Positions 22,780 to 48,187 of a DNA stretch of 64,000 bases are shown piece by piece. The notes beneath the pieces were generated by a model that ran no database searches, had not been told where the DNA came from, and saw only the letters and a list, made by a program, of their open reading frames with translations. The position numbers and the translations under genes are program-made. Source of the DNA: a candidate division WOR-3 bacterium (GTDB taxonomy: Bacteria; Hydrothermota; 32-111). Each line of letters begins with the position of its first letter. Positions within the stretch are counted from its first letter, which is position 1. Location: the NCBI GenBank assembly GCA_039804105.1, contig JBDRZU010000001.1, positions 448,001 through 512,000 of the forward strand. The letters run 5' to 3'.

Positions 22780-22808
22780 AAAAATGTCAAAAAGTCAAGC
22801 ACCGTCCC
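22780..22808 (+). repeat. 29-bp dispersed repeat, copy 1
   Basis: AAAAATGTCAAAAAGTCAAGCACCGTCCC, identical at 24957 and 48159. Confidence 0.97.
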
Positions 22809-24814
22809 TGAAGACATTAAGTAACCCATCAAGTCCAACAGAAGTAGGATATTATAACACACCAGGTAATTCATACGGTGTCTATTTATCAGGCAATCAT
22901 ATATATGTTTCTGATGGTCCAGTTGGAGTTTATATTTTACAATTTTTTGGAGATACAATAATTCCTTCATCATTTAACCTGATATCTCCAAAAGGTAACA
23001 TAAACGACAATACACCGACATATATATGGAATAAGTCGTATGATGAACATTTCAAGGAATACAGGTTATATGTGAATGGGAGTTTGAGTGTTACTATTAC
23101 AGATACAACATATACGGAGCCAACACCGATAGCAGATGGTCAGTACATATGGTATGTAACAGCTGTGGATAGTACTGATAACATAAGACAATCGAATCAA
23201 GTGGATACATTCAGATTGGATGTAACTAAGCCACCTGTACCAGTGATGGTGAGTCCTGCAAATAATAGTTCTACAAATATAACCAAGTTTGTATGGAAAA
23301 AGGTGATAGACAACTATAGTGGTATAAAGAGGTACGAGTTGATGTATGATGAAGATTCATTGTTTGGAAGCCCAGTGGTTCAAAATACAACGGATACAAC
23401 ATACACAGCGGTGTTGACAGATGGCAGATACTATTGGAGAGTAAGGGCGATAGATAATTTTGACAATGTAGGTGACTGGAGCACAAGGTGGAGTTTTGTG
23501 TATGATGAGACAGCTCCGGGTGGACCAGTGCTAATAAGTCCGAAGTGGGGGACAGAGGTAGAGGACTCGTTGATATTATTTGATTGGGGGGGTATTGGTA
23601 AAGGGTATAACTATAGGTAGTAAGGAAAGGGATGAGGAGAAAGTGAAGAAGGGAGTAAAAGGGACGAAGGTGTATTATGAGATAGAGGTGGATACTAATA
23701 GGAGTTTTGGAAGTGTATTGTATAGAGACACGGTGGAAGTAGATAGCGTGAGGATAAAGATAGTTAGAGATGACAAATATTACTGGAGAGTTAGGGGTTA
23801 TGATGAAGCTGGTAATGTTGGTGTTTGGGGGTAGATTCATTTGAGTTAGATATAAAGATACCAGTTATAAGCTTGAGCAAAAAGGTGTACGATTTTGGAG
23901 ATTTGGACACAAACAGGGTGTACATTTGGAGAGATTTATACATCAGGAATGTTGGAGATGGTGTATTAAAAGTAGATTCAGTGAAATATAGTAACACTAA
24001 ATTTTTTGCTGATACTACACATACATATCCACTTCTTATAAATCCAGGAGATAGTGTTAGGTATGGGACGAAGGCATTTTCAGTGGATACAGGTATGGTA
24101 GAGGGTAATTTGAGGGTGTATACGAACATATACAATGTAAAGGCAGACACGGTGTTGTTGAATGCACACTTTGGAAAGCCATTGAGGATAGATTCAGCAA
24201 AAGCATTTGATGGAAGCGTATATGGAGCTGGAATTGATGCTGATGATTATGTAGTGTTATATTTTAACCAACCGACGAATGGATTTAACATTACATTGTG
24301 GAACATAAACGATGTATTAAAATTATCAAATGGACATATATGGACAGATGGATTTGATCTTATTGATTCAGCATACTGGAATCCATTTAAAACAAAACTT
24401 ATAATAGAACTAAGTACAACGATAACACCACCAACGATAAGTGTAGGTGATACGATATATCCTGATTCAATGAGTATCATAGGTACATTGAATTCATTCA
24501 GATGTCATTATCCAGTTGTATTAAGAGGCACATTTGATATAACAGGGATAGAAGAGGAAGAACTAATTACTAAAAATCTGGATAAAAAGGTATCAGAGTT
24601 AAATGTGATGTTCAAAGAAGTTAGATATAGAGTCATTACAGATAATAATGAATTTTATATATACGATATCACAGGAAAAGTTATTTACAATGCAAAGCAT
24701 ATTCCTTTAGGCAATCATACATACAAGTTTGATCAACTTCCATCAGGTATATATTTTGTTAAACTAAAAGATGGAGATACTCAAATAAACAGAAAAGTTT
24801 TTGTGATAAAATAA
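22809..24814 (+). pseudogene. 5'-truncated, doubly frameshifted secreted protein: LVIVD repeat remnant, three Ig/FN3-like repeats, ASH-like domain, unknown domain, T9SS-type CTD
   Basis: Track ORFs 22784-23620, 23580-23834 and 23825-24814 join into one protein across G7 (23586-23592) and G5 (23827-23831). There is no signal peptide and it begins mid LVIVD repeat. Contains YYWRVRA/YYWRVRG repeats and YDITGK...SGIYFV. Confidence 0.82.
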
Positions 24815-24859
24815 TATTGAATCAAATTCGCAAAACTTTAAAATATTTGTCAGCACAAT

Positions 24860-24887
24860 AAAAAGGGGTAAAAATTACCCCTTTTTT
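24860..24887. terminator. Bidirectional Rho-independent terminator
   Basis: AAAAAGGGGTAA-AAA-TTACCCCTTTTTT between convergent genes. Confidence 0.85.
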
Positions 24888-24956
24888 AGTTTCTTATACT
24901 TATTCCCAAAACTCTCAAACTCCACTATTGATGAGCATTTTTGAATGTTTATTCCC

Positions 24957-24985
24957 AAAAATGTCAAAAAGTCAAGCACCGTCCC
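24957..24985 (+). repeat. 29-bp dispersed repeat, copy 2
   Basis: Exact copy, 32 bp from the kwaB stop codon. Confidence 0.97.
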
Positions 24986-25017
24986 CGAAGAGGGTAACAC
25001 ACTAAAAGAAAGCAAAG

Positions 25018-45609: not shown

Positions 45610-45700
45610 CTTTTCTCCTTTTAAATTAATTAAAATAAATATTTTAAATCATTATAGAGTTAAGTCAATATTTTAAAGTGGATAAAGGGATTTTTTAGAG

Positions 45701-45774
45701 TGGGCCCACTAGGGATCGAACCTAGGACCTGATGATTATGAGTCATCCGCTCTAACCAGCTGAGCTATGGGCCC
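45701..45774 (-). tRNA. tRNA with CAT anticodon, probably tRNA-Ile2 (lysidine); elongator Met not excluded
   Basis: Reverse complement GGGCCCATAGCTCAGCTGGTTAGAGC...CTCATAA...GGTTCGATCCC...GGGCCCA. Paired 1-72 and no GGG/CCC anticodon stem, so not the initiator tRNA. Confidence 0.9.
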
Positions 45775-45878
45775 AAGTGTTTTTGTATTATATGATTTTT
45801 TTCTTTCTTGTCAATATAAAATAATTCCATTTCGCATAAGTTTTTTAAAAAACTTGTTTTATTACTTTTAAACAAAAT

Positions 45879-48095
45879 CTATCGAACAATTACAAATTTT
45901 TTATTTAACTTTATCTTTCCATCTGTTAAATTTAAAAAGTATACTCCCGGGTTCAATTTTTTTAAACTCAAAGAGTATCGTCCTGCGACTCTGTTCATCT
46001 GTTGTTTTACAATCTTTCCTGTAATATCGTAAATTACAAGTTCATTTTTATTATGTGCATTATAACTTACCTGATCATTTGTAACCACAAGATTTAAACT
46101 CGTTTGATTTTCATTTTCCGGATCAATGTTTTTGTTGATACCAGTCAATAGAAAATCTAATATGTAAATTCCTCTAAAATCTGTAACATAAACATTATCC
46201 CCATATACAAAAACATCACGGGAATACCCTGGTGTATCATAATAACCGACCTCAACTGGATTTGCTGGATTTTTTACATCAATTATACGCAGCCCACTGC
46301 TACCATCAGCAACATAAGCATATCCTTTGGAAACATAAATACCATTTGCATTTCCTGGAGTATCATAAAAACCAACCTCAACAGGATTTGCTGGATTGTT
46401 GATATTTATGATTCTTAATCCATAGTTGCTATCGGCAATATAAGCATATCCATTTGATATATAAACATTCAAAGCGTTTCCAGGTGTATCGCAGTATCCC
46501 ACCTCTATTGGGCTTAATGGATTTGATATATCTATAACTCTTAATCCGGCACTACTTGCAGCAACAAAAGCGTAATTACCGGAAATATAAACATCATAAA
46601 GATGCCCTGCGGTTGAATAAGAAACAACCTGTTTTGGTTTTGTTAAATCAGAGATATCGATTATCCTTAATCCATAATCGTAGTCAGCAATGTAAGCGTA
46701 ATTACCTGATACATAAACATCGTATGCAAACCCCCAATCTCCAAAGGAACCAACTTTTACAGGGTTCGAAGGATCACTCACATCAAGTATGTTGAACTTC
46801 ATAAGGTCTATATCATAAATATAATATCCACTAACAACATACGCATAATTACCAGATTTGTATACTCCTAAGGCTGGAGAAGCAGAAAGATAACTTCCTG
46901 ATGGGTTTGGATTTACAGGAGTAGAAACATCATATATTTTCAATCCAAAATCATCATTTGCAACATAAGCGTAATTATCTGAAACAACTATTCCTTCTGC
47001 TGAAGTCGGAGTATCATAACGACTTATCTTGACAGGTGAGGTCGGTGTGGTTACATCAACTATTATCAATCCATAACTTTCATTCGCAACATAAGCATAA
47101 CCACTTTTAACATAAATATTTTTAGGAAACGGATAAAGTCCAGTGCTACCAACCTGAACGATATTTGCAGGGTCAGCAATATTTAAAATATTCAACTCAT
47201 AAGTTTCTGAGTCATACTCCCATTCTGTAAGATAAGCATAAGCACCCGAAATATGCAGATCCTCTATAAAATTAAAAGTTGAATAAGAACCTTTTTCTTC
47301 TGGATTGGATGGATCGGATACATCTATTATATTCATTTTGAAGTCAAATAAACCATTATTTATGATCACATAAGCACAGGTTAATGAGATGAAAACCTTT
47401 TCAACAGAACCAGTTGTTATACAATATCCTGTTTCTGTTGGAGTCGAAGGATCTGATACATCGACTATTCTTAAACCTCCACCACCATCAGCAATATAAG
47501 CATAATCAGCAAAAACATAAACATCGTAAGCATAACCGGGAGTGATATAATACCCTGTTTTTACGGGATTTGCTGGATTTGATATATCAAGGATCCGTAA
47601 TCCAGAATCACCATCAGCAACAAAAAGATATACTTTATACACAAAAATTCCTTCAGCATCACCAGGTGTATCAAAAGAAGTCACTTCAACTGGATTAGAA
47701 GGATTTGAAACATCTATAACCCATATTTTAGAACTGGAATCGACCACATAAGCATAATTTCCCAAAACAAAAATTTTATTTAAAATAACACTCATGTCGA
47801 GAAATCCTACAAGAACTGGATTTTGGGGATCTTTCACATTTAAAATTACAAAACTGTATCCCATAGAAACATAAGCAAAACTATCAACTCTGAAAACATC
47901 GTAAGCACTTCCAAAATATGGCACTCTGCCGATTCCTGCAACATTTAAACTATCTGTTGCCCATTCTAAATTTTTTTGATCAAATAAATTTTTAAATTCT
48001 GATGTTTTTATCTTATCCCAATTATATGAACTCTTCGATGCAAAAATAAACAAACTCAAAAAAATCAATGAGGAAATAAAGAATATCTTTTTCAT
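45879..48095 (-). CDS. LVIVD-repeat secreted protein with T9SS-type CTD
   Basis: Signal peptide; many YAYVAD..GLRIIDxSNPxNPVEVG..DTPG repeats; YDITGK...PGVYFL. Confidence 0.92.
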   Translation of the reverse strand: MKKIFFISSLIFLSLFIFASKSSYNWDKIKTSEFKNLFDQKNLEWATDSLNVAGIGRVPYFGSAYDVFRVDSFAYVSMGYSFVILNVKDPQNPVLVGFLDMSVILNKIFVLGNYAYVVDSSSKIWVIDVSNPSNPVEVTSFDTPGDAEGIFVYKVYLFVADGDSGLRILDISNPANPVKTGYYITPGYAYDVYVFADYAYIADGGGGLRIVDVSDPSTPTETGYCITTGSVEKVFISLTCAYVIINNGLFDFKMNIIDVSDPSNPEEKGSYSTFNFIEDLHISGAYAYLTEWEYDSETYELNILNIADPANIVQVGSTGLYPFPKNIYVKSGYAYVANESYGLIIVDVTTPTSPVKISRYDTPTSAEGIVVSDNYAYVANDDFGLKIYDVSTPVNPNPSGSYLSASPALGVYKSGNYAYVVSGYYIYDIDLMKFNILDVSDPSNPVKVGSFGDWGFAYDVYVSGNYAYIADYDYGLRIIDISDLTKPKQVVSYSTAGHLYDVYISGNYAFVAASSAGLRVIDISNPLSPIEVGYCDTPGNALNVYISNGYAYIADSNYGLRIININNPANPVEVGFYDTPGNANGIYVSKGYAYVADGSSGLRIIDVKNPANPVEVGYYDTPGYSRDVFVYGDNVYVTDFRGIYILDFLLTGINKNIDPENENQTSLNLVVTNDQVSYNAHNKNELVIYDITGKIVKQQMNRVAGRYSLSLKKLNPGVYFLNLTDGKIKLNKKFVIVR

Positions 48096-48158
48096 TCATC
48101 CTCCCACTACTGATTGAGTATTCTAATCTTTTAATATTTTTTTAAAACTTTTCAAAAC

Positions 48159-48187
48159 AAAAATGTCAAAAAGTCAAGCACCGTCCC
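48159..48187 (+). repeat. 29-bp dispersed repeat, copy 3
   Basis: Exact copy, 12 bp from the stop codon of the gene at 48200. Confidence 0.97.

Follow-up and report, generated by a model that had tools for sequence, protein, structure and literature searches.

A dispersed 29-bp repeat of a candidate division WOR-3 bacterium, probably the terminal repeat of a single-copy Y1 transposase-like gene, lies at the junctions of gene modules that differ among congeners

Why should the same 29-bp sequence stand three times, always in one orientation, beside secreted-protein and defence genes in a single stretch of a bacterial chromosome? The stretch in question, here called the window, comprises 64,000 nucleotides of a candidate division WOR-3 bacterium, positions 448001-512000 of contig C1 of the genome that we call G000 (G000:C1:448001-512000; contig JBDRZU010000001.1 of assembly GCA_039804105.1). 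A whole-window motif search reproduced the exact copies of the 29-mer (AAAAATGTCAAAAAGTCAAGCACCGTCCC) that a first-pass annotation had reported at window positions 22780, 24957 and 48159, all on the plus strand, and likewise the shared continuation of the first two, which reads TGAAGA after copy 1 and CGAAGA after copy 2. No match to the 29-mer, even at three mismatches, was obtained in 100 dinucleotide-preserving shuffles. The annotation had taken the copies for the edges of three accessory blocks and had proposed that they form a one-ended site, used in trans, for the capture and shuffling of cassettes. We report here that the 29-mer encloses a single-copy Y1 transposase-like gene elsewhere in the genome and that it borders modules that differ among congeneric genomes, and we consider it likely that the repeat is the end of a TIRtron at which such polymorphic modules are exchanged, with the Y1 protein as the presumed catalyst.

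The 29-mer belongs to a repeat family that is spread through the 1.81-Mb genome. A search at up to three mismatches returned 38 matches, 28 of them exact and 19 on each strand, against none for the reversed control, and a pattern in which any four bases may stand between the half-sites found 39 copies. In the motif, the half-site GTCAA stands twice in tandem at a spacing of 8 bp, and after the pair comes a conserved G+C-rich end (CCGTCCCC), to which we refer as the CCGTCCC end. A column-wise logo of 37 copies limits conservation to the 29-mer and the three bases that follow it (C/T, A/G, A), which gives the motif sharp edges; these three bases are CGA in 14 of the 39 copies, CAA in 13, CAG in 4, TAA in 4, TGA in 2, and CGG and CAT in 1 each. 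On the A-rich side, about 50 nt are weakly conserved. The 29-mer has no dyad symmetry, and its minimum free energy of folding is 0.0 kcal/mol on both strands, which rules out a reading of it as a hairpin of the repetitive extragenic palindromic (REP) kind. Likewise, the 75-nt contexts of the motif have a mean folding z-score of -0.24, with 3 of 39 falling below -2.

The gene that owns this repeat lies outside the window, about 575 kb away. At G000:C1:1070311-1071225, a Y1/HUH (IS200-like) gene of 305 amino acids is enclosed by two exact inverted 29-mers (C1:1070315, reverse, and 1071271, forward) whose CCGTCCC ends point outward, and the last 11 codons of the gene are encoded by the motif of the 3' repeat. 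The protein is the sole match to the Y1_Tnp family (PF01797, E-value 3.5e-12) in the genome, and its gene is neighboured by a MarR-like open reading frame (ORF) and by an ORF without a Pfam family. This arrangement agrees with two suppositions of the first-pass annotation, namely that the site is used in trans and that it resembles the flanks of RAYT-like HUH Y1 genes; a copy next to such a gene, and further copies genome-wide and in relatives, are what it had suggested looking for. In an alignment of 19 homologues from the same phylum, H59 and H61 (NHFH, residues 58-61) and Y118 are invariant and N122, which belongs to the Y...NP motif, is at least 90% conserved. The AlphaFold model of the protein (predicted local distance difference test, pLDDT, 86; predicted template modelling score, pTM, 0.75) has TnpA_REP (4er8_A) as its best fold match in Foldseek (E-value 3e-7, TM-score 0.72), followed by the IS608, ISDra2 and IS200 transposases, and the profile of the alignment matches 4er8 over its N-terminal half (E-value 3e-4). 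The C-terminal residues 224-295 form a confident helical part in the model and have no Pfam match at E <=0.01. A search with the single protein returned 80 loci of distant relatives only, from other phyla and with at most 39% identity over the N-terminal half.

Genes of this kind, together with their dispersed flanking repeats, have been described before. In its sections on these genes, the study of Di Nocera et al. 2013 (PMC3733652) describes RAYT-like genes that are flanked by terminal inverted repeats (TIRs) and not by REP hairpins, notes that many of the repeats share GGGGWSAS, names the genes and elements TIRYT and TIRtron, and mentions 'moderately abundant families of TIRs' in some genomes. 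In the corresponding sections of Quentin et al. 2018 (PMC6006769), 20 of 26 TIRYT genes fall in TnpA_Y1 subclass 2.1, the second-largest TnpA_Y1 subclass, which is equated with Bertels' group 1 and is marked by the HUH motif NHVH or NH[YF]H, a Y motif ending in NP and a C-terminal helix-turn-helix like that of Bac_DnaA_C (HTH_23/HTH_28). Where Bertels et al. 2017 (PMC5581495) treat group 1, they find it larger than any other RAYT group and give an average of 12 occurrences for its flanking 16-mers. Those parts of the three papers that deal with RAYT group 1 or subclass 2.1 report no function or biochemistry for it.

The gene and repeat of G000 resemble the TIRYT/TIRtron pattern in having a low-copy Y1/HUH gene with NH[YF]H and Y...NP (one gene match and 39 repeats), in having terminal inverted repeats that are not palindromic, agree with the published GGGGWSAS at 7 of 8 positions of their outer end (GGGGACGG) and overlap the gene end with their 3' copy, and in forming a moderately abundant repeat family that occurs partly as dimers or clusters. 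The C-terminal helix-turn-helix extension of TIRYT proteins may have a counterpart here, to judge by the modelled helical part and a weak match of profile positions 157-302 to DnaA chains (E-value 0.013-0.19). Judged by its sequence, the gene is a member of RAYT group 1, TnpA_Y1 subclass 2.1 and the TIRYT class, and the 29-mer very probably belongs to the TIRYT end-repeat family. Both the class of gene and the dispersal of its flanking repeats were published earlier, in the relevant part of PMC3733652, and the system is therefore not of an altogether new kind. The TIRYT repeats of those published sections are single, dimeric or grouped, and in these sections neither same-oriented copies around gene modules nor module indels nor the replacement of dialects is described; a full-text literature search, with subscription journals and supplements largely outside its reach, found no description of cassette bracketing by TIRYT repeats, of one-copy versus copy-module-copy polymorphism, or of dialect replacement at orthologous sites. 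The REP/REPIN systems with RAYT (TnpA_REP, 4er8) are similar in that a single-copy domesticated Y1 gene of the 4er8 fold has its own dispersed flanking repeat, with which it co-evolves, and inverted doublets exist here and are the main form in neighbouring genera. Unlike REP/REPIN, the repeat in G000 is non-palindromic and does not fold, has two tandem half-sites in place of a hairpin, numbers about 39 copies as opposed to hundreds, and is mostly single and directly oriented in this genus.

Gene and repeat occur together and vary together. A motif family search of 40 related genomes (at most one mismatch, middle four bases free) found the family in 12. Within the genus, G000 has 39 copies, G001 has 35, G002 and G003 have 26 each and G004 has 0; a close orthologue of the Y1 gene is present in G000, G001, G002 and G003, and no Y1 homologue was found in G004, which is 99% complete. 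Among 30 homologue loci, an inverted pair of motif variants surrounds the gene at 9 and one copy stands beside the gene at 5 (some of them at contig ends); the remainder comprise 2 loci with a distant, chance-like match only and 14 without a match to the search pattern. The two half-sites change together from variant to variant (GTCA/GTCA, ATCCA/ATCCA, TTCCA/TTCCA, TTTACA/TTTACA, TGCCA/TGCCA and ATCTT/ATCTT), and CCGTCCC is kept. The main dialect of G002 and G003, TGTCACACTGTCAAG..., is that of the flanks of their own Y1 gene, and the dialect of G000 and G001 is TGTCAAAAAGTCAAG...; at two orthologous sites each lineage has its own dialect (G000 C1:1190949 versus G002 C17:14063 and G003 C7:112181, and G000 C1:1054048 versus the copies in loci L076 and L077). 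Because three coordinated substitutions in some twenty copies cannot arise singly, the copies must be undergoing replacement from a master, or conversion.

The positions of the copies relative to genes bear on a different possibility, that the motif controls a regulon of secreted-protein and defence genes, as its operator, upstream element or promoter, and that selection for the binding of a transcription or sigma factor maintains its identity. With ORFs of at least 90 amino acids as a proxy for genes, a gene starts on the CCGTCCC side of 23 of the 39 copies; a TTGACA-N16-17-TAnnnT-like site often follows 15-45 nt past the motif, the reverse strand of the motif bears TTGACT/TTGACA boxes, and an operon for an extracytoplasmic function (ECF) sigma factor adjoins copy 1. 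Against these points, the distance from motif to next start codon by the same proxy runs from 22 to >500 nt, and 11 of the 39 copies face a gene end on the CCGTCCC side, so that the motif has no fixed position, as a transcription-factor site of the kind considered in the first-pass annotation would have. Copy 2 lies between two convergent gene ends, and at the Y1 gene the motif forms an inverted pair and encodes the C-terminus of the protein. Presence and dialect of the motif track the Y1 gene across genomes, G004 being without both, and neither inverted doublets nor partial tandem duplications of the motif end are features of operators. We therefore regard a regulatory site as very unlikely. 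The partial tandem duplications, which join the last 8-14 nt of the motif to 9-13 nt of flank in units of 18-27 nt, recur in three genomes (G000:C1:1067680-1067716 and G000:C1:1267577-1267640; L061, about 11040-11100, in G001; and L162, G003:C5 about 109960-110020) and may be the footprint of a cutting and joining reaction, or of replication slippage.

Congeneric genomes were also compared at single loci. At G000 C1:261177/263686, the order in G000 is flank X, motif, a 2.5-kb module that encodes a 722-amino-acid LVIVD protein of the type IX secretion system (T9SS), motif and flank Y, and the order in G001 is X, motif, Y; the two G001 alignments overlap by 61 nt, which correspond to the motif, 29 nt of its A side and 3 nt. 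G004 has 162 bp at this locus and no motif. At the locus of G000 C1:599284, G003 has one copy and G002 has two direct copies 10 kb apart, which enclose a PifA-like gene, an unknown gene, a type IIG restriction-modification (RM) gene and an HKD+Snf2 helicase gene; the single copy of G000 and G001 at this locus points the other way. A third case is the locus of G000 C1:709649, with one copy in G000 and in G001 and two direct copies 5.5 kb apart in G002; the alignments overlap by 75 nt at the motif.

A fourth comparison concerns arrays. The G000 array (C1:1281710-1290787) has six exact copies and one variant, and the G001 array (C3:273470-279128) has nine copies, in each case in one orientation. 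The two arrays share a common flank at 91% identity, and their modules are permuted and different: the order in G000 is A', hairpins, B with tail 1, A, C with tail 2, D, and in G001 it is hairpin, E, tail 1, hairpins, D', A, F, tail 2. Homology begins and ends 0-40 nt from motif copies. The array modules encode AAA_14/DUF4143 ATPases (PADLOC PDC-S01), an AbiJ-like protein, DUF2130, LVIVD cargo and unknown proteins. Upstream of two paralogous AAA_14/DUF4143 modules (G000:C1:1286380-1286470 and 1290700-1290790) stand repeated AATCTTGACTTTTTTGCAA... units with TTGCAA-type dyads, which look like operator sites of the promoter belonging to that module. As read from the assembled genomes, these comparisons show that modules between direct copies are present, absent, exchanged or reordered among congeners, with junctions inside the repeat. 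In keeping with this, 13 of the 17 neighbouring pairs in G000 that lie at most 5 kb apart have the same orientation (binomial p 0.049, for pairs that are not independent within an array), and 2 of the 4 opposite-orientation pairs are the Y1 gene itself and a 285-bp doublet. Replication-strand bias was considered as a cause of the shared orientation and was ruled out on inspection by flips of orientation between clusters along C1.

Arrays of same-oriented sites that separate gene-sized modules, and an island at the 3' end of a tRNA gene in the window, are also what one might see with a site for a tyrosine recombinase (integron attC/attI, or modules of the Xer/dif type) or with an unrelated integrative element. 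The genome has only two tyrosine recombinase genes of the Phage_integrase family (PF00589; frames of 304 and 309 amino acids at C1:656 kb and 1328 kb), neither of them in the window or within 38 kb of the arrays. Nor is there a Y1 gene or other transposase family among the 30 ORFs spanning window 13275-56336 in a Pfam search, or an inverted partner copy in the whole-window motif search, so that the first-pass statement that the window lacks an integrase, a transposase and an inverted partner holds. The motif moreover has neither the dyad symmetry nor the fold of such sites, and it co-varies with the Y1 gene instead. A tyrosine-recombinase site is thus highly improbable. What the arrays share with integrons is a similarity of working and not membership: short sites in one orientation, gene-sized modules that vary in content and order between relatives, cargo rich in defence and toxin-antitoxin-type genes, and an enzyme that would act in trans on all sites. 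Unlike integrons, they are without a tyrosine recombinase beside them, an attC palindrome or a shared promoter; genes lie in both orientations and have their own promoters, modules reach 10 kb, sites are also scattered over the chromosome, and the candidate enzyme is an HUH/Tyr nuclease.

Could the copies be artefacts of assembly or binning? Both G000 contigs end about 100 bp past a copy, and many G001 contigs of <1 kb are centred on one. In G001, a motif copy lies 230-670 bp from the contig end in twelve contigs (C4, C6-C9, C11-C13, C15, C17, C18 and C20); the eight of these whose extent was seen measure about 0.4-1 kb and match parts of G000 for which the G001 assembly has no other counterpart, and they may reflect fragmentation in assembly or binning at motif junctions, or heterogeneity of the population. 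In G000, the contig ends C2:421800-422116 and C1:1389577-1389684 are halves of a second 285-bp doublet, at which the contigs probably join, and on C2 a CRISPR array (35-nt repeat, at least 3 repeats) ends 14 bp from the motif copy of the split doublet. The same copies stand in the same places, inside long contigs, in up to four assemblies (G000-G003), which makes an artefact, an alternative also raised at first pass, scarcely credible. Contigs assembled at k=31 from public runs, four of which map on window 20000-35000, stop at the motif (20657-22806, 22779-23948 and 24257-24983 in X1); because any 29-31 bp repeat breaks such contigs, their ends are evidence neither for nor against circles or deletions. 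A contig joint from 24991 back to 23909 represents the paralogous locus G000:C2:243945 (the joints listed have sides of 20-37 letters).

A more serious alternative is a passive repeat family. By this account the Y1 protein, or a past mobile phase, merely scattered its ends as doublets resembling REPINs or miniature inverted-repeat transposable elements (MITEs), which decay to singles; there is no dedicated cassette system, copies persist where insertion is tolerated (variable intergenic DNA and islands), and indels arise by host homologous recombination or by unrelated dynamics of islands, such as a tRNA hot spot or other mobile elements. Several observations fit it and weigh against module exchange by the Y1 protein. 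Inverted doublets exist in G000 (one complete, C1:1386958-1387243, 285 bp, and the second, split one), and they are the main form of the cognate repeats, with spacings of 97 or 395 bp, in four genomes (G006, G009, G007 and G010) that represent two further genera of the family; the 16 matches in G006 resolve entirely into 7 doublets and the gene-bearing pair, a MITE/REPIN-like habit. The first-pass description of the site as one-ended is left in doubt by these doublets and the inverted pair at the gene. Many copies are syntenic on both sides, among them G000 424000, 599284 and 709649 in comparison with G001, as well as copy 3 of the window, which is kept at the same place with both flanks syntenic in G001, G002 and G003. 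At the solo copy G000 424000, about 150 nt differ from the empty sites of G002 and G003, in intergenic DNA too diverged to place the ends or a target duplication. One G000 insertion starts about 90 nt before its copy, and for some indels the distance from edge to motif is 90-330 nt. Core DNA fills two inverted pairs whose copies stand 6-7 kb from each other (G000 C1:1183545/1190949 and 1236876/1242771); the interiors of these pairs are syntenic in G002-G004, which led us to reject a reading of them as composite transposons. The genes of modules face either way and have their own promoter-like sites, unlike integron cassettes, and the DnaA match at profile positions 157-302 is weak. The island of the window begins about 150 bp before copy 1, beyond a hairpin cluster, with copy 2 internal, and its right edge is a tRNA-Ser gene without a motif copy; foreign DNA is likewise present at the tRNA-Ser gene of G004, a genome without the motif, and this hot spot is therefore independent of the motif. 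Finally, a 29-75 bp repeat could also serve host homologous recombination, and indels and permutations do not separate the two routes.

Other observations speak against a passive family. Three clean one-copy versus copy-module-copy polymorphisms and a permuted array have all their junctions within the repeat. The direct orientation of 13 of 17 close pairs is not predicted by decay of inverted doublets. Copies identical over 29 bp (28 of 38) and lineage dialects at orthologous sites are seen, and therefore copies are being replaced, not merely decaying. Moreover, the array itself contains paralogous modules of 1.3 kb that are 88-91% identical to the G001 module and would offer homologous recombination a much better substrate than 29 bp, and still the borders lie at the motif. 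We judge a passive family to be unlikely, though it is the likeliest of the alternatives.

We propose instead that a TIRtron, represented by the single-copy Y1 transposase-like gene, has the 29-mer as its species-specific terminal inverted repeat, and that copies derived from the flanks of this gene now occupy about 39 intergenic positions. HUH/Tyr enzymes that share the fold of the Y1 protein, such as those of IS608 and ISDra2, cut one strand, hold the 5' end on a tyrosine and join it to another cleaved site. This cleave-and-join chemistry agrees with the passages of PMC5027513 that concern it. By analogy, the C-terminal helix-turn-helix part of the Y1 protein would read the two half-sites, and the HUH/Tyr core would cut and rejoin DNA at or near the conserved end. 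The joining of two direct copies would release a module with one copy, and the reverse reaction would put the module in at any other copy, with the Y1 protein acting in trans; such reactions would yield arrays of the integron kind, in which defence and T9SS-cargo cassettes are self-expressed. From the genome comparisons, we give a little better than an even chance to module exchange being the work of the Y1 protein itself. In its fullest form, which we put forward tentatively and with rather less confidence, the proposal is that RAYT group 1/TIRYT proteins, a widespread class, run a second, integrase-free kind of cassette platform by recombining in trans the copies of their own ends, 29-32 bp long: modules that comprise one to four genes (Kiwa, type IIG RM with HKD-Snf2, AbiJ-like, PDC-S01 ATPases or LVIVD cargo), each with one copy, would be cut out, inserted at any copy and shuffled, and old copies at fixed sites between genes would be overwritten by the current dialect.

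Two further systems invite comparison. Transposases of the IS200/IS605 family (IS608 and ISDra2) have the same catalytic fold (Foldseek E-value about 1e-5) and are known to excise and insert single-stranded circles by joining two cleavage sites. Unlike them, the system described here has no subterminal hairpins, consists of a single-copy 305-amino-acid gene with an extra DNA-binding part, has inverted repeats as its ends, and has no TnpB among the ORFs flanking the Y1 gene (tnpB was not searched for genome-wide). In marine picocyanobacteria, subclass 2.1 TnpA_REP genes occur with prochlorosin (procA) clusters, and the structure of the genomes alone gave rise to the proposal that they take part in diversifying recombination (bioRxiv 10.1101/2020.03.09.984088). 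The protein subclass is the same, and full genes and C-terminal fragments are interspersed there with a fast-diversifying gene family. Unlike the present case, no inverted repeats were found, and the causal claim was later withdrawn by the authors (bioRxiv 10.1101/2020.03.09.984088); here the repeat itself is a recognisable site, and what is exchanged is entire modules whose genes are unrelated.

In the window, copies 1 and 2 would accordingly bracket a decayed LVIVD cassette and precede a module of Kiwa, type IIG RM and HKD-Snf2 genes, in an island adjacent to a tRNA-Ser gene. This island of 10.8 kb (22628..33395) is absent from G002 and G003, in which the upstream region of the ECF operon and the tRNA-Ser gene are just 33-46 bp apart in alignments; its right border is the 3' end of tRNA-Ser(GCT) (33413..33504, minus strand). 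At this spot G001 has the hairpins, a single copy of the motif and 4.4 kb of other DNA (N6/N4 methylase and GmrSD). Copy 1 (22780..22811, plus strand; the 29-mer and TGA) has its A-rich side toward the hairpin cluster and the ECF-sigma operon. G001 has a copy at the same place, and the homology between G000 and G001 spans the hairpins and the motif and then ends. The CCGTCCC end of copy 1 adjoins a 5'-truncated secreted-protein gene whose longest ORF begins at an ATG within the motif. This degenerate LVIVD/Big_13/Por_Secre_tail cargo gene (22784..24814, plus strand; two ORFs, 22784-23620 and 23825-24814) fills the module between copies 1 and 2, which closes with a conserved tail (24725..24956, plus strand) composed of a terminator hairpin at about 24858-24890 and about 70 nt ahead of copy 2. 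The tail of copy 2 also precedes motif copies at G000:C1:1286480 and 1271989 and is a mini-module of its own in the G001 array; it corresponds to no known RNA family, since Rfam at gathering thresholds returned only two tRNAs in window 20000-50000. Copy 2 itself (24957..24988, plus strand; the 29-mer and CGA), between its two convergent gene ends, has on its CCGTCCC side the defence cargo (25018..33196, minus strand): KwaB (25018-25881, E-value 2.5e-57), KwaA (25885-26388, E-value 1.9e-43), a type IIG restriction-methylase (26413-30000, E-value 9e-294) and, next to it, the HKD+Snf2 helicase (29993-33196), all on the minus strand. A homologous IIG and HKD-Snf2 pair lies between two direct motif copies at another locus in G002, the one that corresponds to G000 C1:599284 (65% DNA identity).

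Copy 3 (48159..48190, plus strand; the 29-mer and CAG) has a different setting. It lies between two minus-strand genes of a three-gene T9SS cargo block of 8.5 kb (45827..54343, minus strand; absent from G004), which Pfam identifies as LVIVD (45879-48095), FG-GAP (48200-50440) and CHU_C (50343-54071), and we take it for a copy of greater age that has become fixed there. The interval from copy 2 to copy 3 contains, at 33544-45609, glnA, transporters, Ugd (UDP-glucose dehydrogenase), and genes for a pseudouridine synthase, ScpB, DprA, Obg and an aminotransferase. The first-pass view of the copies as edges of three accessory blocks must therefore be given up, since these housekeeping genes separate copies 2 and 3 and only 22628-33395 is an island. 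Its list of cargo (Kiwa, restriction-modification, a truncated secreted-protein gene, T9SS genes and a poly-C tract) is confirmed by family matches and by a C10 tract. The idea of cassette capture and shuffling stands insofar as copies bracket modules that differ among congeners with junctions in the motif; it does not extend to copy 3, which is fixed, or to the edges of the island, which lie at hairpins and a tRNA gene. Synteny of both flanks in relatives, which the annotation had named as an argument against its own proposal, is found for copy 3 in G001, G002 and G003; G002 and G003 lack the island that holds copies 1 and 2.

A second repeat adjoins copy 1. A cluster of GTAG-tagged, REP-like hairpins (GTAGCCGCA..CTTTAG..TGCG) occupies 22645..22772, and all six G000 members of this family lie within 160 bp of a motif copy (others include C1:1267634 and 1289234-1289405). 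GTAG hairpins also occur at the G001 loci L061 and L064, and six stand in a row before the G001 copy at the ECF/tRNA-Ser locus. No second Y1 gene to which they might belong exists in G000, and the hairpins could be by-products or auxiliary substrates of the same enzyme.

Several other observations concern the surroundings of the copies. The ATG inside the motif (window 22784; L015:3-569, corresponding to G000:C1 about 1069773-1070339) opens ORFs that start MSKSQAPS(L/P)...; at the copy downstream of the Y1 gene, AAGGAG stands 5 nt before the motif ATG, so that the next gene may start inside the 3' repeat, and window copy 1 has no ribosome-binding site of the AAGGAG kind before its motif ATG. 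The operon on the A-rich side of copy 1 (20523-22618, minus strand) encodes an unknown 164-amino-acid protein, an LTXXQ periplasmic protein, the ECF sigma factor and a likely anti-sigma factor, and its upstream region is the conserved left border of the island. In the block of copy 3, the C10 tract (54137-54146, minus strand) lies 30 nt after an ATG with a good ribosome-binding site, at the 5' end of the CHU_C ORF of 1242 amino acids; as assembled, the frame of this ATG ends early and the long ORF starts at TTG, and the tract looks like a slipped-strand on/off switch, or else a homopolymer sequencing error. Window 42000-58000 (16 kb) matches G001, G002 and G003 in a single piece at 92-93% identity, and 20000-22627 and 33395-37000 match G002 and G003 at only 69-80%. 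This contrast may reflect recent exchange between species, which in the case of 42000-58000 would explain why copy 3 has the G000 dialect in G002 and G003.

Given one gene, about 26-39 near-identical sites per genome, a sister species with neither, and dialects that differ between lineages, this genus is a compact natural test case for the TIRYT class. Several of its clean polymorphisms between one site and site-module-site carry recognisable defence systems, and the architecture of tandem half-sites and a conserved, presumed cut end would provide a defined 29-bp substrate for biochemistry, which makes the function of group-1 RAYT proteins directly testable. Should the enzyme not recombine the sites, the end sequences of a domesticated transposase would be seeding recombination hot spots. 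If it does recombine them, an HUH enzyme would assemble defence islands and secreted-protein repertoires in an integron-like way, and this would be a new route of cassette exchange.

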